Positions 1-8,465 of a DNA stretch of 64,000 nt are shown here, piece after piece. The first letter of the stretch is position 1; each line of letters begins with the position of its first letter. The notes below the pieces were generated by a model. It saw only the letters and a list, made by a program, of their open reading frames with translations, ran no database searches and was not told the DNA's origin. Origin of the DNA: Methanosarcinales archaeon (GTDB taxonomy: Bacteria; Omnitrophota; Gorgyraeia; Duberdicusellales; 4484-171); the NCBI GenBank assembly GCA_048634245.1, contig JAIWAR010000002.1, positions 5,418-69,417 on the forward strand, written 5' to 3'. A program made the translations under genes and the position numbers.

Positions 1-2412
1 CTATAAAACACTATCGAATTCAGCAATTACCATAAATTCACCCTCTTCTGAATTTGGAATACTAATGGGATCGTAATCGGGATTTAAAGACAAAAGAGTT
101 ATTTCTTCATGTTTCCACGATCCATCGTCAAATACCTTTTTTTTGCTTGTATATTTTTTTACAGTATATTTTCCACCTGTTTCGGGATCAGAGATACCAT
201 TATGCTGCACTAAAACAATTTTGTTTTGCCTAGTTCCTTCTACCCCCCATCGAAAAATGCAAAAACTATCATTGGGTATTAGTGGTTCCATAGAATGACC
301 GATCACCTTTGCCACAAACATTCGTCGGTTTAGTTTTTTGCCAATATTTGCCTTAGCCCATCCTTCTTCGTGACTACTCATACCTCGCCCAAAATTACCA
401 GCAGCTGCTTCTAGTGAATAGACTGGTAAATACTCAGTATATTTAAGATGCTCTTCAATATCTTGCTCGATCTTGTAAATTAATTGATCTTCTGCTGCGA
501 CTAAATCAGAAAGTTTAAGGGCTTTTCCTTCATCTATCGGCGTTCCTTCAATACGTGACTTAAAAAACCTCTCTATATCTTTATTCATAAAATAGACATA
601 ACATCCTTTCATCCCGCGGCTAAGTAACACTCTATAAGTATTTTTTATGAGATCAATAAAACCTTCTTTTGAACGCTTTACCACATTGTCAGATGATTTA
701 TGGGGGTTACCCACCCATTCTTGATTATCAAAATCATAAACTAAATCTTCGCCAAAAATAACTCCGACATAATCAAATTCAAATCCTTGCGCAGTATAAA
801 TACACCCCACCTGATTTATTCCATTTGGGTCATATGCCCATAATGAAGCCTTGGGAATTCCCGGAGCTAACCTTCGCGCTTCTGGCTTTGCATCCCAGGG
901 GCGTTTATAATCGCCGATAACAACATCATCTTTTAAAGTTCCATCTTCATTCGGCATAGACCAATCCCAACAAAATCCAGCAGTCACGCGTCCCGTGAAC
1001 CCACTTTTTACTTTTTCCCTTATTGCAGCTTCTAATTCAAAAGGAGATGGGAATATTCTAAAATCAAACTCTTCATGCTGGTCCCAAATAACATTGGCTG
1101 TTCGCTGTATACCGAGTGTATTATTTATCCAATTAACAAAAGCATCTGACCCATTACATCGAAATTGTGCTGCTAATTCATATTCGAACATCTTACAACC
1201 TTCATCATTAGCCCATTTTTTAATGTAGCTTACAGAACCTATTTCGTTAGGCCTTACAACCTGTTTATCATCTATAAGAAATACCGCTACTTTAGATGTA
1301 TGCAATAACTCTTCTATCTGAGAGAATTCTGATCTTTGTGCACGAGGGGTAAAACGGCTGTTGCTTGTTTTACGTATTCTATGTGCCTCATCGGCTATCA
1401 AAACATCTATGATGTTAGGTTCAGCTTGTGCGTAGCTATTAAAATATTTAAATTGCACAGATCCACGCGAGCCAATAATCTTACGGAGCGTTTCCGTAAA
1501 TGCTCTAGACCCTGTTGCATAATGTGCATTAAATCCTTTGAGCGATAAGTCCGCCATAAGATTAATAGCTATTACTGATTTCCCCGTACCTGGGCCACCC
1601 TTAATTATTAAAACTGTTTTTTGTTTGTCTCGAAATCCTCTTTTTGCGCAAGAAAGCACTTTATCGTAAACGATTAGCTGTTCATCAAGCAAGATATATT
1701 CACTTTTTCCTTTTATTATATTACCTACGTGACCCATTAATTTTTTACTTGGCCGGTATTTGCTTTCTTCAACTCTTTTAAGAACGCTTAGCCCCTCACC
1801 TCTTGACATTTTACTAGCTAAATAATCTGCTAACTTATCTACATCATCAGCCGTAAATAAAGGGTACTTAGATAATACGGCAGAAAATTTATCTGAAAAT
1901 ATAACATCTTGATTATAGTAATTATAATTATGAAGATAAGCGCAGGCCCTTAATTTTACAGGATTGTAATCAGTATTAAAGGTGGTATGGGTATCTTGCA
2001 GATACATTTGATATTGACCAACTTGCACTGCTGGATGAAGCACCTCTCTTTTAGCTCCTCCAACCCATGTCAAAACTTCATTATCTCCGGCTGCTTCCTC
2101 ACATTTATCCCATTGTTTAAGCTCTACTATAACAGCATTATCTTCCTTGGAGTCATCTTTGCCACAAATCATACAATCTAATCTTTTTGAAGTTAACGGT
2201 AATTGATACTCTAAAATAACACCATGATCGAATAAGTTTGCATATTGAAAAACTTGAGAAATTGATCTTAGTGAATTACGCCAAGAATTGACTTCTGCCG
2301 GGGCCGGGTTGTAGCGGAAATAATTGAAAAATGCAAGTTTTAGCTTTTCGGCAATTTGATTCTGAATGGTATCATCTATAAACTGCTGAGAGCTTCCTGA
2401 ATAAAGTCTCAT
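1..2412 (-). CDS. Three-module protein: N-terminal PD-(D/E)xK-like nuclease domain, DUF2075 / Schlafen-like SF1-type P-loop ATPase (Nhi-like nuclease-helicase architecture), and C-terminal LexA/UmuD-type S24 serine peptidase domain
   Basis: Walker A GGPGTGKSV and Walker B-like VLIADEAHR. N-terminal D..ExK (RLDCMICGKDD...VIVELKQW). The C-terminal 106 aa align to LexA: GHSMEP (Ser), GGKYTVKKY (Lys), LNPDYDPISI. An AAG candidate cleavage site lies 35 residues before the Ser. The stop codon is at positions 1-3, so the gene is complete. Confidence 0.75.
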   Translation of the reverse strand: MRLYSGSSQQFIDDTIQNQIAEKLKLAFFNYFRYNPAPAEVNSWRNSLRSISQVFQYANLFDHGVILEYQLPLTSKRLDCMICGKDDSKEDNAVIVELKQWDKCEEAAGDNEVLTWVGGAKREVLHPAVQVGQYQMYLQDTHTTFNTDYNPVKLRACAYLHNYNYYNQDVIFSDKFSAVLSKYPLFTADDVDKLADYLASKMSRGEGLSVLKRVEESKYRPSKKLMGHVGNIIKGKSEYILLDEQLIVYDKVLSCAKRGFRDKQKTVLIIKGGPGTGKSVIAINLMADLSLKGFNAHYATGSRAFTETLRKIIGSRGSVQFKYFNSYAQAEPNIIDVLIADEAHRIRKTSNSRFTPRAQRSEFSQIEELLHTSKVAVFLIDDKQVVRPNEIGSVSYIKKWANDEGCKMFEYELAAQFRCNGSDAFVNWINNTLGIQRTANVIWDQHEEFDFRIFPSPFELEAAIREKVKSGFTGRVTAGFCWDWSMPNEDGTLKDDVVIGDYKRPWDAKPEARRLAPGIPKASLWAYDPNGINQVGCIYTAQGFEFDYVGVIFGEDLVYDFDNQEWVGNPHKSSDNVVKRSKEGFIDLIKNTYRVLLSRGMKGCYVYFMNKDIERFFKSRIEGTPIDEGKALKLSDLVAAEDQLIYKIEQDIEEHLKYTEYLPVYSLEAAAGNFGRGMSSHEEGWAKANIGKKLNRRMFVAKVIGHSMEPLIPNDSFCIFRWGVEGTRQNKIVLVQHNGISDPETGGKYTVKKYTSKKKVFDDGSWKHEEITLLSLNPDYDPISIPNSEEGEFMVIAEFDSVL

Positions 2413-2756
2413 AATTTATTATACTTAGTATGCTTTCCTCTAGCCTTTTCTACAGGATATTTCTTTTCATTTTTTGCTAATTTTTTTTCCATAGCACTAA
2501 TTAAATCTATACTTAGATTATCAGCTAGCTCAAAAAGATATAAAGCAATATCAGCTATCTCATCTTTAATTTCATCATGATTCTGCCTTGCGTATTCCTC
2601 CACCTCTTCAATAGTTTTCCACTGAAAATGCTCTAACAACTCAGAAGCTTCAAGAATGATTGAGACAGCCATATTTTTAGGATCATGGAATTGCATCCAG
2701 TCCCGGTCATCTCGAAATTTTTTAATTCTTTCAGTTATATTTTCTACGTCACTCAT
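2409..2756 (-). CDS. MazG-like all-alpha nucleoside triphosphate pyrophosphohydrolase (COG1694 type)
   Basis: FRDDRDWMQFHDPKN...EASELLEHFQW...EIADIALYLFELADNLSIDL...KNEKKYPV matches the MazG/YpjD EExxE and DxxLY motifs. It overlaps the downstream gene by 4 bp (ATGA). Confidence 0.8.
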   Translation of the reverse strand: MSDVENITERIKKFRDDRDWMQFHDPKNMAVSIILEASELLEHFQWKTIEEVEEYARQNHDEIKDEIADIALYLFELADNLSIDLISAMEKKLAKNEKKYPVEKARGKHTKYNKL

Positions 2757-2868
2757 AAAAAACCCCCATTTTAATTAGAGTAGCACTATAGAAATTCCGA
2801 AGACGGTTCACTTAATTACCGAAAAAGAAATTACCCTCTTTATGTTAATAATATATTTAACTTCCCCC

Positions 2869-3069
2869 TTATAATTTTCTCCCCACTAACTTATCCAAAC
2901 TAACCCCAAACACATCTGAAAGTTTAATCAATGTCTTCAAGGTGGGATGTTTCGCTAACCCTTGTTCTATCTTGGTAATCGCATTAAAAGAAAGGCCTGC
3001 TTTCTCAGCAAGTTTTTGCTGAGACCATTCTTTTTGTTTGCGAAATTTCTTTACTCTTCCTGCTAACAT
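2869..3069 (-). CDS. XRE-family (Cro/CI-type) HTH transcriptional regulator
   Basis: QQKLAEKAGLSFNAITKIEQG is the typical XRE HTH; 66 aa. Confidence 0.8.
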   Translation of the reverse strand: MLAGRVKKFRKQKEWSQQKLAEKAGLSFNAITKIEQGLAKHPTLKTLIKLSDVFGVSLDKLVGRKL

Positions 3070-3192
3070 CTTACTTGACCTATTACTACTTTTGTGGTAT
3101 TACTTCTATAGCACTACTTTTGCCATATTTTAGTTAGGCTATTCTACCACTTTGATAGACTTTGAAAAAGAAAAATTTCGGAGATAAAACCT

Positions 3193-3390
3193 ATGCTCTG
3201 GTTCCTAAGCAATTTCCTCCACCCCTACCTCAAACCTAAATACATCTGGGTTAAGGTGCGGATACGGTATGAGACTGAAAAGGCTATTCTTGTATTATGT
3301 AAAGGAGCGAAAGTTTGGCTTCCTAAATCGCGGATAGACAAGATAAAGTTTAAGAGAGGAGTGTTTTGGATTTATGTGCAGATGTTTTGA
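3193..3390 (+). CDS. Small basic hypothetical protein (65 aa), divergent from the XRE gene
   Basis: ORF with GGAG about 10 nt upstream of the ATG. No recognisable domain. Confidence 0.25.
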   Translation: MLWFLSNFLHPYLKPKYIWVKVRIRYETEKAILVLCKGAKVWLPKSRIDKIKFKRGVFWIYVQMF

Positions 3391-3595: not shown

Positions 3596-4300
3596 CTAAC
3601 TCACGCGGTCCCGTTCGAAAGAGCGGGATTTTCGCATTTTAGGGCCTTGATACCAGTGCCCAAAATTTACAAATTTAGTTAAAACCCCCCACAGTTCTTT
3701 TGCGACTTGGCCTCTCACTCCAAAAACATAAATATTTTTACCTTTTAGTTTTAACCGATTGAGGGGTTCCTTGAAGTCTGAATCACCAGAAAAAAGTAAA
3801 ACACCAGACACCCTATCCACCACATCTAACATATCGAGTGCGATTTCTACATCAAAATTACACTTTGGTTCTTCTATCACAACCTTTTGGCTTTGAAGAT
3901 ATTCAATTAGCTCGTCCAACTTAGAATGTGCATTGCCATCAAAGAGTTCAAGAGTCCCGGATTTAACGAATAATTTTCTAGTTATTTTTTTCTTAATCCA
4001 TTTCACAGGCTTATTAATTACAATTGCTCCTTTACTTCTTAATACTTTATGGAAATTTTCAGATTTTTTGAAATCGCGATAGTTTACCCCGTAATATATA
4101 CGGATTTCCTTTAATGCAGTTATTTTAAATAACTGCTTAATAACAAAATAGATTGAAAATTTCCATTTTAAGCTATCTTGCCAACCAAACATATTGCTTA
4201 AATCGAGATATGCAATAAGGCTGGTTTCCCTAAAAAACTCATAAGTCTTATTTCTTTCCATTATATATGTTTTTGAAATTCCGAAATTCCGGTGACACAA
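3596..4300 (-). CDS. NYN-domain (LabA-like) putative RNase
   Basis: VLLFSGDSDF motif and conserved upstream D residues of NYN/LabA. The start may be the internal MERNKTY at about 4261. Confidence 0.7.
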   Translation of the reverse strand: MCHRNFGISKTYIMERNKTYEFFRETSLIAYLDLSNMFGWQDSLKWKFSIYFVIKQLFKITALKEIRIYYGVNYRDFKKSENFHKVLRSKGAIVINKPVKWIKKKITRKLFVKSGTLELFDGNAHSKLDELIEYLQSQKVVIEEPKCNFDVEIALDMLDVVDRVSGVLLFSGDSDFKEPLNRLKLKGKNIYVFGVRGQVAKELWGVLTKFVNFGHWYQGPKMRKSRSFERDRVS

Positions 4301-4368: not shown

Positions 4369-5349
4369 CTATGAATTTAGTTCTTTCTCTAATCCCTCTA
4401 TCACACCCAAAAGCTCATCAAAATTCGGGTATTCACCAAATATCATCTGCTCCATGTCAGCGTAATCTTTCCTTAATGCACCTGTTAAAGATTCATTTGG
4501 CATTAAAGCAAAAGTGCCTGGTCTCGCAAGATCATCTCTTGCCCAAGAACTTGGAAAGAATTGCTTCTTAAATGTTACTACCTGTTCACAAAGAACCAAA
4601 TCAATAATAGCCGAATCTTTAATACCTTTTTTACACATCATCACAACATCATAGTAATGACGCGAATACCTATCTCTTGATTGTTTACCCGCTGAACGAT
4701 GATGTTCTTGATGCAATATCAGCACTTTTTCCCAAAATGTTCTCTCAGCCTTTATTGCATGTACACTTACCATAGGATCAGAAAACACACCTGGAAATTC
4801 TTCTGCCGCATACGGCTTTATATTATAGAAAGCATTTGGCTTCCATGCTGATCTAGGGCCTATTTCCAAAAAAATACGGTCCTGAATATATTTATCTGTA
4901 AAACTAGACGGATACTTAATAAATATTTTTGCGGTATCACCAGAGGTATTGATATCCAAGACACACAGGTCGCCAACAAGATCCTTAACTATCTGATAAA
5001 TCGTATCTTCAACAAATTTACACGACTTTTGTTTAAGTTCGGCATGCCAAGATTTCTTAGCTTTACCAGAAGTCCCTTCAGGAAGCTGACTCATCTGCAA
5101 AAGATTCCAATTCAGTACAAGATCAATGTCTTCTGAGAATCGCTCTATTACATTAAATACCTTTGAAAGGCTTGTCCCTCCCTTAAACATGATATTCTTA
5201 GAAAACATAGAATGTCTATACAGCTTCTGAAGGACCCAACATGCCCAGAAGTCCTTTTCTATAATTATTTCTCTTACCCCACGCTTTGCAGCACACTCGT
5301 GAAATATATCCGCACGCTGTTTAGGTGGCATCCTTGCAACTTTATTCAA
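4369..5349 (-). CDS. abiEii: AbiEii/AbiGii-family nucleotidyltransferase toxin (DUF1814)
   Basis: N-terminal IEKDFWACWVL signature; length about 320 aa. It overlaps the upstream AbiEi-like gene by 8 bp. Confidence 0.75.
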   Translation of the reverse strand: MNKVARMPPKQRADIFHECAAKRGVREIIIEKDFWACWVLQKLYRHSMFSKNIMFKGGTSLSKVFNVIERFSEDIDLVLNWNLLQMSQLPEGTSGKAKKSWHAELKQKSCKFVEDTIYQIVKDLVGDLCVLDINTSGDTAKIFIKYPSSFTDKYIQDRIFLEIGPRSAWKPNAFYNIKPYAAEEFPGVFSDPMVSVHAIKAERTFWEKVLILHQEHHRSAGKQSRDRYSRHYYDVVMMCKKGIKDSAIIDLVLCEQVVTFKKQFFPSSWARDDLARPGTFALMPNESLTGALRKDYADMEQMIFGEYPNFDELLGVIEGLEKELNS

Positions 5350-5953
5350 TCTTATCTCCTAGTATATACTTGATATTATCATATACACTTCCTGACATAC
5401 CCTTAAAGTCTTTAGATATATTGTTTAGCTCATCATCACTAAAATATGATTTCATTTTAAGCAAATCATCATTACTAATATCCCCCGGCAAGAGCCCCTT
5501 AATAGCCTGCACAAGCAGAGCTGTCTCAGGATACTTAACCGCCATATCTCTTTTAAGTTGATGCTTGAACACAAGTTTTGTTTTACCTATCTTATACTTG
5601 CGATGCGGACCATCTGAATAATAAATAACTCTGCTGGGGACCTGAGCAGAAATACCAAGTATATTTAAAGCAGTATCACTTGAAGGATGTATATTCCAGC
5701 CGCATTTACGCGCAATAGCATCAGCGACCTTTGATATAGCCGGACTAATATATTGTTTAAGGATATCGCTATAAGAAGGATAATCATAGATTCCTGTCAT
5801 AACCCTTCTGATATTACCCTTCTTGTAAAGACGCACTAAAGCCTGACGCACAGCATCTCGTGATGCGATATCCCTGAAATCCACTGCAGAGAAAGCCCAA
5901 GACTTCTTTTTTGAACAAATTTTCCTAAATATTTTATCTTCAATACTATACAT
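5342..5953 (-). CDS. abiEi: AbiEi-family type IV antitoxin / transcriptional autoregulator
   Basis: About 200 aa, immediately upstream of and overlapping AbiEii. Direct-repeat operator-like sites lie just upstream. Confidence 0.6.
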   Translation of the reverse strand: MYSIEDKIFRKICSKKKSWAFSAVDFRDIASRDAVRQALVRLYKKGNIRRVMTGIYDYPSYSDILKQYISPAISKVADAIARKCGWNIHPSSDTALNILGISAQVPSRVIYYSDGPHRKYKIGKTKLVFKHQLKRDMAVKYPETALLVQAIKGLLPGDISNDDLLKMKSYFSDDELNNISKDFKGMSGSVYDNIKYILGDKIE

Positions 5954-5969
5954 ATGCCATATTATACAC

Positions 5970-6016
5970 TTTTGTCACAGAAATTTCAACTTTTTTGTGA
6001 CATTTTGTCACAGAAA
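5970..6016. promoter_or_regulatory. Candidate AbiEi operator: TTTTGTCACAGAAA twice (5970-5983 and 6003-6016), plus a TTTTGTGACA variant between them
   Basis: Repeats read directly, 17-63 bp upstream of the abiEi start codon (5953). Confidence 0.45.
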
Positions 6017-6104
6017 GCAATAGACCTCCATGGATATTACCAAAGCTCAATTCACTGTAATATATAACAAAAACCTTTGTACAATCATGGATTTACGGTT
6101 GACA

Positions 6105-6194
6105 ATTCACAGGAAAAGTGGTATATTTTTTGCAAAAACCATAAAAACATTCAAAATTAACTAAAACAAAAAATATACCACTTTTCCTGTGAAT
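6105..6194. repeat. Perfect 27-bp inverted repeat (attcacaggaaaagtggtatatttttt / aaaaaatataccacttttcctgtgaat) around a 36-nt AT-rich loop
   Basis: Arms at 6105-6131 and 6168-6194 are exact reverse complements. It lies between the PLD-family gene stop (6239) and the abiEi upstream region. Confidence 0.9.
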
Positions 6195-6238
6195 ACAATT
6201 CTTTTTTAAATTTCTACCTATTATCAAATCTTCTCTAC

Positions 6239-7411
6239 TCAATCACCATACTCGCGTAAATCATTAAATGCAGCTTTGATAGTTGATACATTGACATTAA
6301 AACGTTTAGCAAGGGCAGATTTTGATATGGAATATAAGTCTTTTCCTTCATCTTTAAGCAGTGCCTCGATTATACGAAGAAATTTTAAGCGCATAGTCAA
6401 CGCGCTTTTGTTTGTTCTAATAATAGACCTGGTGGGTATACTGAATTGAGATTGCTTCGCTTCGCTCGCAATGACGATAGGCTTCAGTGCTACAACAGCA
6501 TCTCTTCCAAAAACAAACTTTACGTTAATAAGATGATAGCGATTTTGTAGTTTTTTTAAGGTTTTAATTACTTGCCGCCTCAAAGCGCTATATGTCCATG
6601 AATCAGGCATGCCTAAACTTAAAGCCATAGCTTCTAAACTTATTAAAAATTCCTGTTTGCCGGTAGTCTGACTATGAGCTAAAAGTAATAGATAAAGATC
6701 CATAGCGCGTTCACCAGAGCTGGTAACCATACGAGAAAGATATTTTTTATTCAAAAGAAACTCTTTGGGAACAGATAAGCTTTTAGGCAGATTTTCCATA
6801 TAGGCCGGAATATAATGTCTTTTATCACGCGGCGCAGAAGATATAAGAAGGTTTTTAAGGCGTGATAGTTTTACTTGGGCTAAGTCCGGAGAATCGATCA
6901 GCGTAGAAGATTCAAAATTATTCTTCAGCGCTGAAATAGACCAATTAGCGCTGCCTTCAACTACATATCGACTATCAACCACTATAAGTTTATCATGAAG
7001 CCTGCGATTAGAGGGTATAAAATGAATGACAACTCCGGTATTTTCTAATTTCTTAAAAATAGAGCTCTTGATAAAAGGGTTCTCGCCTTTGTCAGAATCT
7101 CTGAAGCGGGTATTAAGATATAGTGTAACTTTAACGCCTCTTTCTCTTGCTTCCAACAAATCGTTAAGCAAAAGCCTTATCGGATTCCTAGTCTTTGTTC
7201 CCAGACTTATACTATATATAGAAATAACTATGGAATTTTGCGCATTATCTAAAAGCTGAATTACAGCTTCTTCGTAACTACGATCAGATATATCTTTTAC
7301 TTTGGCAGAATGAAATGTTTCTTCAAAATCACTGGAGTAAACAGAAGCAGCTAGAATAAAAGTAAAAAAGCCGAGGCTAACCCATGATGAAAGGAATTTT
7401 CGTCTACACAT
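6239..7411 (-). CDS. Secreted phospholipase-D (HKD) family nuclease-like protein with a roughly 190-aa C-terminal HTH-like extension
   Basis: Signal peptide MCRRKFLSSWVSLGFFTFILAASVYS. A single HKD motif HDKLIVVDSRYVVEGSANWS. The C-terminal region has HTH-like segments (ISKSALAKRFNVNVSTIKAAFNDL). Confidence 0.7.
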   Translation of the reverse strand: MCRRKFLSSWVSLGFFTFILAASVYSSDFEETFHSAKVKDISDRSYEEAVIQLLDNAQNSIVISIYSISLGTKTRNPIRLLLNDLLEARERGVKVTLYLNTRFRDSDKGENPFIKSSIFKKLENTGVVIHFIPSNRRLHDKLIVVDSRYVVEGSANWSISALKNNFESSTLIDSPDLAQVKLSRLKNLLISSAPRDKRHYIPAYMENLPKSLSVPKEFLLNKKYLSRMVTSSGERAMDLYLLLLAHSQTTGKQEFLISLEAMALSLGMPDSWTYSALRRQVIKTLKKLQNRYHLINVKFVFGRDAVVALKPIVIASEAKQSQFSIPTRSIIRTNKSALTMRLKFLRIIEALLKDEGKDLYSISKSALAKRFNVNVSTIKAAFNDLREYGD

Positions 7412-7512: not shown

Positions 7513-8013
7513 TTATTCCAACTTTGTCCGCTTTGGTATATTACCATTTTTGAAATGCTTATCGAGCCAGCCATTTTTCACATTTTCTCTTGAATCAAAA
7601 TGCGAAACATAGGGTTTAATATCTAACAAAGGTGTACCATCTAATATATCAACCTCTGAAAACGTAATAATATTACTCTCTACTTTTTCCAATTTCACAA
7701 TAGAAAACCCAATATGATTCGGCCTCATCGGACTCCTAATTGCAAATATCCCGTGTGATTCATCTTCAAGGAAGGGTCTGCCGATAAGCTTCTCATCTTT
7801 AGATCTATCAAAATAATAGATTAAAATAATATGAGAAAATCCTTCTATATCTTTAAGGCCCTGCCGATACTCTGAAAATAGCTCAGCCTGGCCAGTAACG
7901 CCTTTTTCAAATCTACCTTGGATAGGTATACCCTTTGGTTCTTTATATGGCGTATGAATTATGCCTATTGGTTTCAATTTTATCTCTTTTTCCATATTAC
8001 ATCCAACATCCAA
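7513..8013 (-). CDS. tsaA: tRNA (adenine37-N6)-methyltransferase TsaA (YaeB/UPF0066 family)
   Basis: IGIIHTPYKEPKGIPIQG...AIRSPMRPNHIGFS...LDGTPLLDIKPY are conserved TsaA motifs. The start is probably MEKEIKL at 7995. Confidence 0.75.
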   Translation of the reverse strand: MDVGCNMEKEIKLKPIGIIHTPYKEPKGIPIQGRFEKGVTGQAELFSEYRQGLKDIEGFSHIILIYYFDRSKDEKLIGRPFLEDESHGIFAIRSPMRPNHIGFSIVKLEKVESNIITFSEVDILDGTPLLDIKPYVSHFDSRENVKNGWLDKHFKNGNIPKRTKLE

Positions 8014-8162: not shown

Positions 8163-8465
8163 TCATACTTTTCTTGCCAACACCTTATCTAATCTCATGC
8201 CGCCAACTAACAATTCTTTCTGCCCGCGATTCAACTGCTTAATCTTATATTCCGCCCTCATCGCATAGCACAAATGACAATACTCCTTTGTCCAAGCCAC
8301 CTTAACCGGCCTTTTGTATCGTGTATATTTAGCTCCCCGCTCACTTTCATTATGTTCTTTGATACGTTTTTCCAAATCATTAGTATATCCGGTATAGTAT
8401 GTTCTGTCAGAACACTCAAGAATATACACAAAAAATCTACCAGAATGCTTAAAATTAGACTTCAC
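8163..8465 (-). CDS. GIY-YIG nuclease family protein (YhbQ/UPF0213-like)
   Basis: FFVYILECSDRTYYTGYTNDLEKRIKEHN; 100 aa; GTG start. Confidence 0.75.
   Translation of the reverse strand: MKSNFKHSGRFFVYILECSDRTYYTGYTNDLEKRIKEHNESERGAKYTRYKRPVKVAWTKEYCHLCYAMRAEYKIKQLNRGQKELLVGGMRLDKVLARKV

Follow-up and report, generated by a model that had tools for sequence, protein, structure and literature searches.

The DUF2075 nuclease-helicases of bacteria are related to the human Schlafen helicase domain. Proteins with DUF2075 (PF09848) include the validated defence genes Nhi, Nhi-like and AbiO, and are tallied as Abi in defence surveys. Phages escape the validated Nhi-like protein through loss of a DNA methylase (10.1101/2022.08.27.505566), and expression of at least one Nhi homolog has proved toxic (10.1101/776245). 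Such nuclease-helicases are already accepted as anti-phage proteins; the new features of the family described here are the pairing with a MazG-like gene and the fusion to a LexA-type S24 domain. A full-text search of the literature returned no paper joining DUF2075 with MazG, nor, among the hits for the Pfam accessions, any with both PF12643 and PF09848.

The first-pass annotation did not recognize this locus as a named system, and PADLOC-DB 2023 agrees, with weak partial matches only (45-55 bits). The PADLOC model for Nhi matches only residues 236-426, the P-loop region, with 44.6 bits, and pairwise alignment with the validated Nhi-like protein gives 21% identity over 228 aa (E 9e-6), so a full-length match to the Nhi or Nhi-like family was rejected. 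Two other candidate identities were discarded: AbiO, with a model score of 47.5 bits confined to residues 236-422, and PDC-S41 (PDLC05014), which reaches 54.5 bits in two partial stretches, compared with E 3e-288 for true PDC-S41 neighbours of the module. Both are assigned to clades different from that of the nuclease-helicase analysed here.

Gene organization and genomic setting

ORF calling and Pfam searches confirmed all three genes and their domains, co-oriented on the minus strand as first described, in the 64-kb window (the whole stretch of DNA that was analysed). The nuclease-helicase-S24 gene (803 aa) spans 1..2412, its stop codon being window bases 1-3, and is preceded by the MazG-like gene (115 aa, 2409..2756) and the XRE/HTH_3 regulator gene (66 aa, 2869..3069). 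The 4-bp overlap noted between two of the genes is an ATGA at 2409..2412, where the stop codon of the MazG-like gene meets the start codon of the 803-aa gene. The same 4-bp overlap occurs in the called genes of two related loci (L081 and L082), and tblastn coordinates at four more (L001, L002, L009 and L011) are compatible with it. The 803-aa reading frame is not a chance one, since more than 100 homolog clusters share its architecture at 62-81% identity. Pfam and PADLOC also recovered the proposed defence-island neighbours, namely NYN (3596-4300), AbiEii (4369-5349; PADLOC E 2e-101), AbiEi (5342-5953; E 2e-52), a DrmC-like PLD+HTH protein (6239-7411) and GIY-YIG (8163-8465), with TrmO at 7513-8013. 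All coordinates within the three genes below refer to the minus strand.

The nuclease-helicase core

The N-terminal domain of the 803-aa protein (aa 1-235, 1708..2412) is of the PD-(D/E)xK nuclease type with a D...(D/E)xK arrangement, as in Nhi and Nhi-like, and its candidate catalytic residues are E68 (2209-2211), D79 (2176-2178), E97 (2122-2124) and K99 (2116-2118). It is followed by a DUF2075, or Schlafen-group-3-type, SF1 helicase-ATPase (aa 236-622, 547..1707), identified from Pfam, motifs and Foldseek. As predicted in the first-pass annotation, a profile search detects DUF2075 (SLFN-g3_helicase, PF09848) at residues 265-608 with E 2.8e-88. The Walker A motif GGPGTGKS (1576-1599) and the DEAH motif (1381-1392) provide the Walker A/B pair that is also found in Nhi and Nhi-like; G272, G273, P274, T276, G277, K278, S279, D341, E342 and H344 are invariant among homologs, and G275 is kept in at least 90% of the sequences. 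Foldseek matches for the helicase include SLFN11 (7zel, E 3e-9), RecD2 (3gpl), Dda (9kwf) and Dna2 (5eaw), and the full-length AF2 model (pLDDT 72.9) resembles the same four proteins. The core is joined to the S24 domain by a poorly conserved linker (aa 623-660, 433..546), delimited by column conservation and length classes, with a mean column conservation of 0.33 versus ~0.8 in the core and predicted disorder at residues 624-645 (pLDDT <50 in the AF2 model).

The LexA-type S24 domain

The C-terminal residues 661-803 (4..432) form a predicted LexA-type S24 self-cleaving peptidase domain, detected by Pfam as Peptidase_S24 (PF00717) at residues 664-796 with E 9.9e-9 and by Foldseek as a match to the lambda CI hyper-cleavable fragment 2ho0 (target TM 0.67, probability 1.0), that is, the LexA/CI C-terminal domain fold. 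A profile of S24 tails compared with the PDB matched LexA chains only, weakly (E 0.003-0.1). The Ser-Lys dyad of S24 self-cleaving peptidases is present as Ser707 in GHSMEP (292-294) and Lys752 in TVKKY (157-159), neither of which varies in 31 tails; across 108 full-length homologs each is at least 98% conserved. Alignment of the tails places the predicted scissile bond at Ala671-Gly672 (397-402) within LEAAAG, with the characteristic spacing of 35 aa from Gly to Ser707, and this is kept in at least 80% of homologs. Most of the 31 tails have AAAG or AACG at the cleavage site, and a Bacillota clade has AVAT, with Thr in place of the cleavage-site Gly. The Pfam search found no HTH fused to the S24 domain of the kind seen in LexA/CI repressors; the HTH is encoded by the separate 66-aa gene. 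The domain is probably a functional self-cleaving switch.

The domain is best described as an optional C-terminal add-on. It is present in 147 of 200 sequences of the clade, with S24 bearers interleaved on the tree, and among the surveyed loci it is confined to bacteria, none of the archaeal copies having it. The proteins fall into two length classes (~622-647 aa and ~790-825 aa), and orthologs without S24 stop at about aa 622, are 77-82% identical and keep all motifs. The same S24 subtype terminates type I HsdR, Type ISP, TnsA-like and RE_endonuc proteins and also occurs within RM loci. Several of these fusions are fragments on short contigs, and one HsdR (L097) is broken into several ORFs.

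The MazG-like pyrophosphohydrolase

The 115-aa protein belongs to MazG-like PF12643 (E 1.9e-19; 70.2 bits versus a gathering score of 27), bearing out the original call, and to the class of all-alpha NTP pyrophosphohydrolases of the DCTPP1/RS21-C6 type; its PDB matches include 4qgp (E 5.5e-24) and DCTPP1 (E 2.8e-18). The acidic metal site consists of E36, E39, E66 and D69, which together with R18, W20 and H24 are at least 97% conserved among 67 module-linked copies. PADLOC-DB 2023 has no match for this gene. The first-pass annotation had offered depletion or sanitizing of the nucleotide pool as its function. Because the protein is homologous to the house-cleaning enzymes DCTPP1 and RS21-C6, the second of these is better supported, and a role as sanitizer of non-canonical dNTPs is plausible, if slightly short of an even chance. 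Pfam finds no modified-base reader (SRA, PUA/EVE, DUF3427, McrB-N or SBD) in any of the three proteins, and a connection to modified nucleotides is therefore drawn from neighbours at other loci and from the DCTPP1 homology. Type IV modification-dependent restriction was rejected as an identity for the same reason, readers being found only among the neighbours of other loci.

The XRE regulator and candidate operators

The XRE call was also upheld (HTH_3, E 1.2e-17), and the gene is taken to be lineage-specific, outside the conserved core. It accompanies the pair in only three of 83 loci, all closest relatives: homologs adjoin the pair in L004 and L007 alone (75% identity), and that of L001 lies 2 kb away (40% identity). 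A TAGTGCTA motif at 2781..2788, 25-32 nt upstream of the MazG start, is a weak candidate for an XRE operator. The window contains three copies of this 8-mer, all minus-strand (2492, 2781 and 3109), and none was found in L004 or L007. The last copy is part of an imperfect palindrome (3101..3116) about 40 nt upstream of the XRE start, a weak candidate for an autoregulatory operator. A promoter-like site was seen at 3168-3141, of a kind that shuffled sequence yields at least as often.

The conserved unit and its spread

We surveyed 83 related loci, 80 of which have enough upstream sequence to assess the MazG-like gene. It lies directly upstream of the nuclease-helicase gene in 62 of the 83, across many bacterial phyla and archaea, and is lacking in 18 of the 80, where a replacement is not evident. 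The reading of all three genes as one unit did not hold up, with XRE rare and S24 optional; judged by conservation, the unit is a pair, MazG-like plus nuclease-helicase, and no further gene is conserved around it across the loci surveyed. The pairing is kept at ~35% identity in Priestia, Halalkalicoccus and Halomonas plasmids; the Halomonas genes stand in a different order, with S24 and MazG both still attached. Distances of MazG and core co-vary (Mantel r 0.29, p 0.001). The patchy occurrence of the family and the 60-80% identity between bacterial and archaeal copies indicate horizontal transfer. Plasmid-borne copies exist, and phage genomes are nearly without the family (4 of 50,697 records). 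Conservation of the core is unusually high for a defence gene, which counts against a defence reading.

The flanks are variable and often carry defence genes, type IV-like restriction especially. These include AbiE, type I RM, mREase_IV, SoFic, PbeA, AAA_21/RloB, several PDC candidates, PLD-helicase-DUF3427 enzymes (DUF3427 in L028, L032, L033 and L079), a MrcB_N protein (L085) and HNH_2 proteins with weak resemblance to phosphorothioate-DNA restriction endonucleases. An E2/E1/JAB/MBL system lies directly beside the nuclease-helicase gene itself, and PDC-S41 paralogs stand in tandem with the module at four loci; one copy (L082) is placed amid housekeeping genes. Relatives of the core are fused to TIR, N6_Mtase, Type_ISP_C and PIF1. 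The TIR, N6_Mtase and Type_ISP_C fusions, the variable defence-bearing flanks and the plasmid carriage give good support to a defence role for the cassette, which we consider likely.

Proposed mechanism and alternative explanations

The best overall explanation, in which we place as much belief as doubt, is a mobile, restriction-like anti-phage cassette that combines a nucleotide-pool sanitizer with an SOS/RecA-responsive proteolytic switch. Its conserved core is the two translationally coupled genes. Modelled on Nhi, Nhi-like and AbiO-type proteins, the 803-aa effector would be an SF1 motor that translocates on foreign DNA and cuts it with its PD-(D/E)xK nuclease. The DCTPP1-like MazG would hydrolyse non-canonical dNTPs, probably base-modified ones from phage synthesis or the breakdown of modified DNA, which would keep host DNA clean or deprive the phage. 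In this bacterial subclade, a LexA-type S24 domain has been grafted onto the C-terminus of the effector and would self-cleave at Ala671-Gly672, most likely on meeting RecA-ssDNA filaments, tying the enzyme to the SOS signal. The small XRE protein may be a local transcriptional regulator in this lineage only.

That S24 gates the activity, as first suggested, is a reasonable proposal, and the evidence is no less compatible with an SOS-triggered off-switch than with an on-switch. We lean tentatively towards off, with a little under half of our confidence, as a built-in form of restriction alleviation: cleavage would part the motor-nuclease from the dimerizing S24 domain, so that its new C-terminus reads ...LEAAA, and the chromosome would thereby be spared during breaks and gaps. 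This C-terminus may be likened to that of LexA, whose cleavage reportedly exposes a ClpX degron, as Neher and colleagues are said to have found in 2003. It is possible, though rather unlikely, that in the same cassette S24 is instead a safety catch, and that RecA filaments from phage replication intermediates or prophage induction trigger cleavage to yield an active enzyme like the natural 622-aa forms. As S24-less orthologs keep all catalytic motifs, residues 1-671 should be competent and the cleaved product might be active; the linker ahead of the site is variable and predicted to be disordered, and the toxicity of a Nhi homolog would argue for a latch. Among S24 proteins, UmuD is activated by cleavage. 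Against a safety catch, LexA and CI are inactivated by cleavage, their functional domain being split from the dimerization domain. The same S24 subtype is moreover carried by type I HsdR and Type ISP-type enzymes, constitutively active classes that would need alleviation and not activation during damage, and it would be hazardous to free a nuclease at the very time of breaks in host DNA.

Two explanations depart further from the restriction-like cassette with an off-switch. A non-immune, accessory SOS-linked repair or tolerance module, in which MazG clears damaged dNTPs, the nuclease-helicase processes damaged ends or forks (cf. Dna2, RecD2) and S24 activates it after damage as in UmuD, is improbable given the patchy, horizontally transferred distribution among unrelated flanks, the recurrent defence and RM neighbours, the TIR, methyltransferase and Type ISP modules of relatives and the validated defence genes among PF09848 proteins. 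It would account for the Dna2- and RecD2-like fold, the house-cleaning nature of MazG/DCTPP1 enzymes, the strong conservation of the core across domains of life, S24 as a classic SOS sensor, and some neighbours: ERCC4+HhH at four archaeal loci, a HhH-GPD glycosylase, NUDIX in 3 of 150 flanking ORFs and an annotated MutT on the Priestia plasmid. The loci showed no conserved association with recA, lexA or polymerase genes. Still less probable is that MazG is itself an effector, starving phage replication by depleting the canonical dNTP pool beside the nuclease-helicase. Its catalytic residues are intact, its gene is translationally coupled to the effector, and the defence enzymes dCTP deaminase and dGTPase deplete dNTPs. 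The nearest solved relatives, DCTPP1 and RS21-C6, are however low-capacity house-cleaning enzymes, MazG has no PADLOC match and is dispensed with at the 18 loci noted above, and constitutive depletion by a 115-aa protein with no sensor or regulatory domain would be toxic.

Implications

The obligate-looking MazG/DCTPP1 partner suggests that nucleotide-pool control is built into a DNA-targeting defence, and the LexA-type self-cleaving domain that restriction-type enzymes can read SOS directly, at the protein level. Protection of the chromosome from its own restriction enzymes during damage is understood for only a few type I systems, and a built-in autoprotease, if true, would be a simple answer. 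More speculatively, and with well under an even chance, the S24 autoprotease could be a modular, horizontally shuffled sensor grafted onto restriction-type motor-nucleases (DUF2075, HsdR, Type ISP and TnsA-like), answering RecA filaments directly at the protein level through self-contained restriction alleviation or activation, with the DCTPP1-like enzyme of the same cassette as the dedicated modified-dNTP sanitizer of the restriction system. The literature searched gave no prior description of such an S24 sensor on restriction enzymes. With its small size (~2.8 kb), high conservation and occurrence in both bacteria and archaea, the cassette should be easy to clone and test.

Comparison with known systems

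Nhi (Staphylococcus epidermidis SERP2475; Bari et al. 2022) and Nhi-like (Bacillus cereus FSL H8-0482; Millman et al. 2022) share with the protein described here an N-terminal PD-(D/E)xK domain followed by DUF2075/SF1, colinear in pairwise alignment, as well as defence-island or plasmid settings and, probably, phage DNA as the target. They act as single genes, whereas the present family has a MazG-like partner and, in many bacteria, S24. PDC-S41, a PADLOC candidate single-gene system, and AbiO are likewise DUF2075 proteins of similar length and layout. The S24 domain has the Ser-Lys dyad, the Ala-Gly ~35 residues before Ser and the fold of LexA, lambda CI and UmuD; its cargo is a 620-aa nuclease-helicase, in contrast to an HTH (LexA, CI) or a short arm (UmuD). 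The MazG-like protein belongs to the same all-alpha fold family as DCTPP1/RS21-C6 and the archaeal pyrophosphatase 4qgp, with the same acidic metal site and RDW..FH..FQW motifs, and differs in that a mobile cassette encodes it as the seemingly obligate companion of a nuclease-helicase. ClpXP-dependent restriction alleviation acts on type I enzymes, as in EcoKI HsdR, and the proposed logic would be the same, a translocating restriction motor being removed when the chromosome is damaged; here, we infer, the trigger would be the built-in S24 autoprotease and not recognition of a stalled HsdR.

Genes and domains in the window

The gene for the 803-aa nuclease-helicase occupies positions 1–2412 of the minus strand, its stop codon being window bases 1–3, and is preceded on the same strand by the 115-aa MazG-like gene (2409–2756) and the 66-aa XRE/HTH_3 gene (2869–3069). 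The MazG stop overlaps the start of the 803-aa gene in the ATGA at 2409–2412. The first-pass annotation had proposed these three minus-strand genes and their domains, and Pfam bears out the calls. SLFN-g3_helicase (PF09848, formerly DUF2075) covers residues 265–608 of the 803-aa protein (E 2.8e-88) and Peptidase_S24 covers residues 664–796 (E 9.9e-9); the 115-aa protein matches MazG-like PF12643 (E 1.9e-19) and the 66-aa protein HTH_3 (E 1.2e-17). NCBIfam returned no meaningful match for the 803-aa or MazG proteins, and PHROGs returned generic repressor and pyrophosphatase families only. Searching PDB sequences by phmmer gave no useful match for the whole 803-aa protein or for the S24 tail alone, which required profile or fold comparison. 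The full-length model of the 803-aa protein (pLDDT 72.9) has structural matches to SLFN11, RecD2, Dda and Dna2, and its C-terminal domain resembles the hyper-cleavable fragment of lambda repressor.

All 2-kb bins across the window (1–64000) have a negative GC skew (cumulative −5.4), G+C is about 35–42%, and nearly all long ORFs in the first 12 kb examined lie on the minus strand. The skew and ORF orientation are consistent with one replichore and a strong gene-strand bias.

The MazG-like gene and the nuclease-helicase form the conserved unit

More than 100 homolog clusters of the 803-aa protein share 62–81% identity and an unchanged architecture, and forms of ~622 aa that have no S24 domain are 77–82% identical to it. 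At E ≤1e-30, the family comprises 966 clusters in a library clustered at 50% identity. A one-genome-per-species scan yielded 168 relatives, and 80 loci were analysed. Bacterial loci come from Omnitrophota, Nitrospirota, Bacillota, Desulfobacterota, Elusimicrobia, Chloroflexota, Bacteroidota, Acidobacteriota and Patescibacteria, and the many archaeal loci from Bathyarchaeia, Methanosarcina, Thermoplasmatota, Nitrososphaerota and Woesearchaeota. With tblastn-anchored calling, 62 of 83 loci have a MazG-like gene as the immediate upstream neighbour in the same orientation, the exceptions being mostly archaeal; greedy ORF calling gave 46 of 81, antisense ORFs having displaced MazG. Distances of MazG and of the nuclease-helicase core show a modest correlation (Mantel r 0.29, p 0.001). 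The three-gene module originally proposed is therefore conserved as a pair, with the XRE gene confined to the closest relatives. All-against-all ORF clustering of the loci revealed no conserved third gene, the commonest neighbour families occurring in at most 11 loci.

The pair is kept in more distant relatives on plasmids. A Priestia aryabhattai plasmid (~35% identity) encodes an MrcB_N protein, a ‘nucleotide pyrophosphohydrolase’ and DUF2075 in succession, with a restriction endonuclease on one side and a type I RM system on the other. The pair is also present on Halalkalicoccus jeotgali plasmid 1 (~35% identity), and B. thuringiensis plasmids carry an NTP pyrophosphohydrolase, HNH and DUF2075 (25% identity). 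On a Halomonas sp. PA16-9 plasmid (L088, 3920–6853; 35% identity), DUF2075, S24 and MazG are followed by AbiEi/AbiEii, which is also a neighbour system of the window. MazG is here downstream rather than upstream, and the S24 part lies in another reading frame, in an ORF (5911–6390) that overlaps the end of the DUF2075 ORF; because the record is essentially unannotated, this frameshift may be an assembly error.

In about 10 loci, a family of ~270-aa proteins, sometimes with N-terminal TPR repeats, is encoded directly upstream of MazG, or, in loci lacking MazG, upstream of the helicase gene (L024, 271–2262; L025, 5698–7647; L043, 3035–5023; L034, 6828–7631; L077, 5232–6266; L080, 1486–2625; L044, 2164–3030; L049, 7072–7872). 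Pfam, NCBIfam and PADLOC give no match to this family, which may represent a third component in a subclade. A regular-expression search of neighbouring ORFs found no NUDIX protein replacing MazG.

In four MazG-less archaeal loci, an XPF/Hef-like nuclease (ERCC4 + HhH) is encoded close to DUF2075. The two genes adjoin in L026 (529–1209) and L031 (3240–3923); the nuclease gene lies ~2.6 kb downstream in L065 (8201–8878) and, in L020 (9926–10600), a short way downstream of the match. This proximity could reflect shared synteny or a repair link.

A lineage-specific regulator

The XRE gene encodes a regulator restricted to this lineage: L004 and L007 are the only relatives in which it adjoins the pair, and in L001 the distance is 2 kb. 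The 8-mer TAGTGCTA has just three copies in the 64-kb window, all on the minus strand and within a 620-bp stretch of the module (2492–2499, 2781–2788 and 3109–3116). Two of them precede the start codons of MazG and XRE by 25–40 nt, and an imperfect palindrome (3101–3116) includes one copy. We consider TAGTGCTA a weak candidate for the XRE operator because it is local to the window's contig and absent from the XRE-bearing closest relatives L004 and L007. Promoter and terminator scans performed no better than on shuffled sequence. The 520-bp gap between XRE and NYN also contains a 65-aa ORF (3193–3390, plus strand) divergent from XRE.

Evidence on a defence role

Nuclease-helicases of PF09848 include the validated Nhi, Nhi-like and AbiO, and defence surveys treat PF09848 as an Abi family. 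Core relatives at 31–41% identity are fused to TIR, N6 DNA methyltransferase, the Type ISP specificity domain or PIF1 helicase. The defence neighbours named in the first-pass annotation are all present: NYN, AbiEii/AbiEi (strong PADLOC matches), the PLD gene, which encodes a DrmC-like PLD-HTH protein, and the gene for a small GIY-YIG protein; TrmO lies among them. Between AbiE and TrmO, this PLD gene (6239–7411, minus strand) encodes a 390-aa protein with a hydrophobic N-terminus, a single DrmC-like PLD (HKD) domain and a C-terminal HTH_36-like region, an unusual combination.

The public contig containing the window extends beyond window base 1, and there (L087, 6636–10913) the nuclease-helicase gene is directly followed by a 57-aa ORF and two E2-CBASS-like genes. 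Next come genes for an E1 of the ThiF type, a protein that matches the JAB-like cap2_3 C-terminus and a protein of the MBL fold. Their similarity to the ‘6A-MBL’ anti-phage system of NCBIfam is weak, with scores below cut-off. With these E2, E1, JAB-like and MBL genes on its other side, the module lies between AbiE and a ubiquitin-like conjugation system, and the defence island therefore continues past the window edge.

Different loci have unrelated flanking genes, which are often defensive. In the set of 150 ORFs closest to the module in L001–L083, PADLOC detected HNH (7), mREase_IV, AbiEii, SoFic, type I RM, PbeA and several PDC candidates, and Pfam detected HNH_2 (7), ERCC4 (4) and NUDIX (3). 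Four of these ORFs are paralogous second DUF2075 genes in tandem with the module, assigned to the PADLOC candidate single-gene system PDC-S41 (best E 3e-288). A Hymenobacter plasmid (L084, 2904–4760) has two tandem DUF2075 genes, beside a DNA methyltransferase, and the upstream copy matches PDC-S41 weakly (69.5 bits). Evidence counting against defence comes from some loci in housekeeping surroundings (L082) and from others beside repair genes. The family is carried on plasmids and is rare in phages; with matches in only 4 of 50 697 phage records, we rejected a phage replication gene as the explanation.

The S24 domain is an optional module

The family falls into two length classes, of ~622–647 aa and ~790–825 aa, and all archaeal loci have the short form. 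On a rough neighbour-joining tree of the core, presence of S24 is interleaved, the 200 sequences requiring ~20 parsimony changes; some of the short S24-less forms may be truncated. Within the domain, Ser707 and Lys752 are invariant, and the LEAAA|G motif 35 residues N-terminal of the Ser is kept in most homologs (AVAT in a Bacillota clade); the 40-residue linker before S24 is poorly conserved and predicted to be disordered. A profile of 31 S24 tails matched only LexA in the PDB. From these patterns, we regard S24 as an optional, functional-looking module.

When 5.8 billion proteins were searched by profile, 1134 proved related to this S24 subtype, including classical HTH-S24 repressors and stand-alone small proteins. 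In other proteins, it follows the extreme C-terminus of type I HsdR (T1RH-like_C positions 273–328; P0286, P0368), Type_ISP_C (P0381), a TnsA-like nuclease (P0354), RE_endonuc (P0301) or a Ras-like GTPase (P0336). An HsdM-HsdS operon (L097, 3421–6492) includes a fragmented HsdR that terminates in S24; this HsdR is split into five ORFs, possibly through sequencing frameshifts. S24 also occurs with HNH_2 and two methyltransferases (L095), with HNH_2 (L093, 65–727), and with a ResIII/RE_endonuc protein, PemK and PLD (L092, 5217–5936). The contexts of these putative fusions are restriction-like; many of the proteins are fragments, several of them on short contigs.

Direction of the proposed switch

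Because the Ser-Lys dyad and cleavage site are conserved, the 803-aa protein likely cleaves itself, which would release the fragment 1–671 and a free S24 domain. We lean slightly towards cleavage as an off-switch, that is, restriction alleviation. In LexA and CI, cleavage removes the dimerisation domain and disables the cargo, and the N-terminal fragment of LexA exposes a ClpX signal to which the predicted new C-terminus (...LEAAA) is similar; both points favour an off-switch. HsdR and Type ISP classes need alleviation during DNA damage, and we counted the same S24 subtype in proteins of these types towards this reading as well. It is possible instead that S24 cleavage activates the nuclease-helicase, as the S24-less 622-aa orthologs are presumably active and nuclease-helicases of this kind can be toxic (10.1101/776245).

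Likely role of the MazG partner

The closest solved relatives of the MazG-like protein are the archaeal pyrophosphatase 4qgp and DCTPP1/RS21-C6, and the acidic metal site and RDW/FH/FQW motifs are kept in 67 module-linked MazG copies. DCTPP1 is a house-cleaning enzyme that prefers 5-modified dCTP. Components of modification-dependent restriction (HNH_2, PLD-helicase-DUF3427, MrcB_N and mREase_IV) are recurrent minority neighbours, the HNH_2 proteins weakly resembling phosphorothioate-DNA restriction endonucleases. The PLD-helicase-DUF3427 class has been reported beside DUF2075 genes (PMC6765204), and phages escape the validated Nhi-like by loss of a DNA methylase (10.1101/2022.08.27.505566). 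A survey of His-Me finger proteins noted uncharacterised HNH genes beside MazG genes; nothing further on MazG with type IV restriction appeared in the literature searched. The first-pass annotation had allowed for depletion or sanitising of the nucleotide pool. Given the DCTPP1 kinship, the modification-dependent restriction neighbours and the methylase-loss escape, we favour sanitising of non-canonical dNTPs by the MazG partner and disfavour bulk depletion. This role is one we infer, as none of the three proteins of the module has a base-modification-reading domain.

Comparison with known systems

In the literature searched, we found no paper mentioning both DUF2075 and MazG, none on PDC-S41, and nothing relevant on S24 autocleavage in an anti-phage context. 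In line with the earlier view, PADLOC does not capture the locus as a named system: its models give only partial matches of 44–55 bits to the 803-aa protein, in contrast to the genuine PDC-S41 members beside the module (E 3e-288). The 803-aa protein resembles Nhi and Nhi-like in predicted working but is not a member by sequence, with 21% identity to the validated Nhi-like. On its sequence features, we classify the locus as a putative defence system in which a DUF2075 nuclease-helicase has a conserved MazG partner and carries a modular domain that would act as a LexA-type switch.
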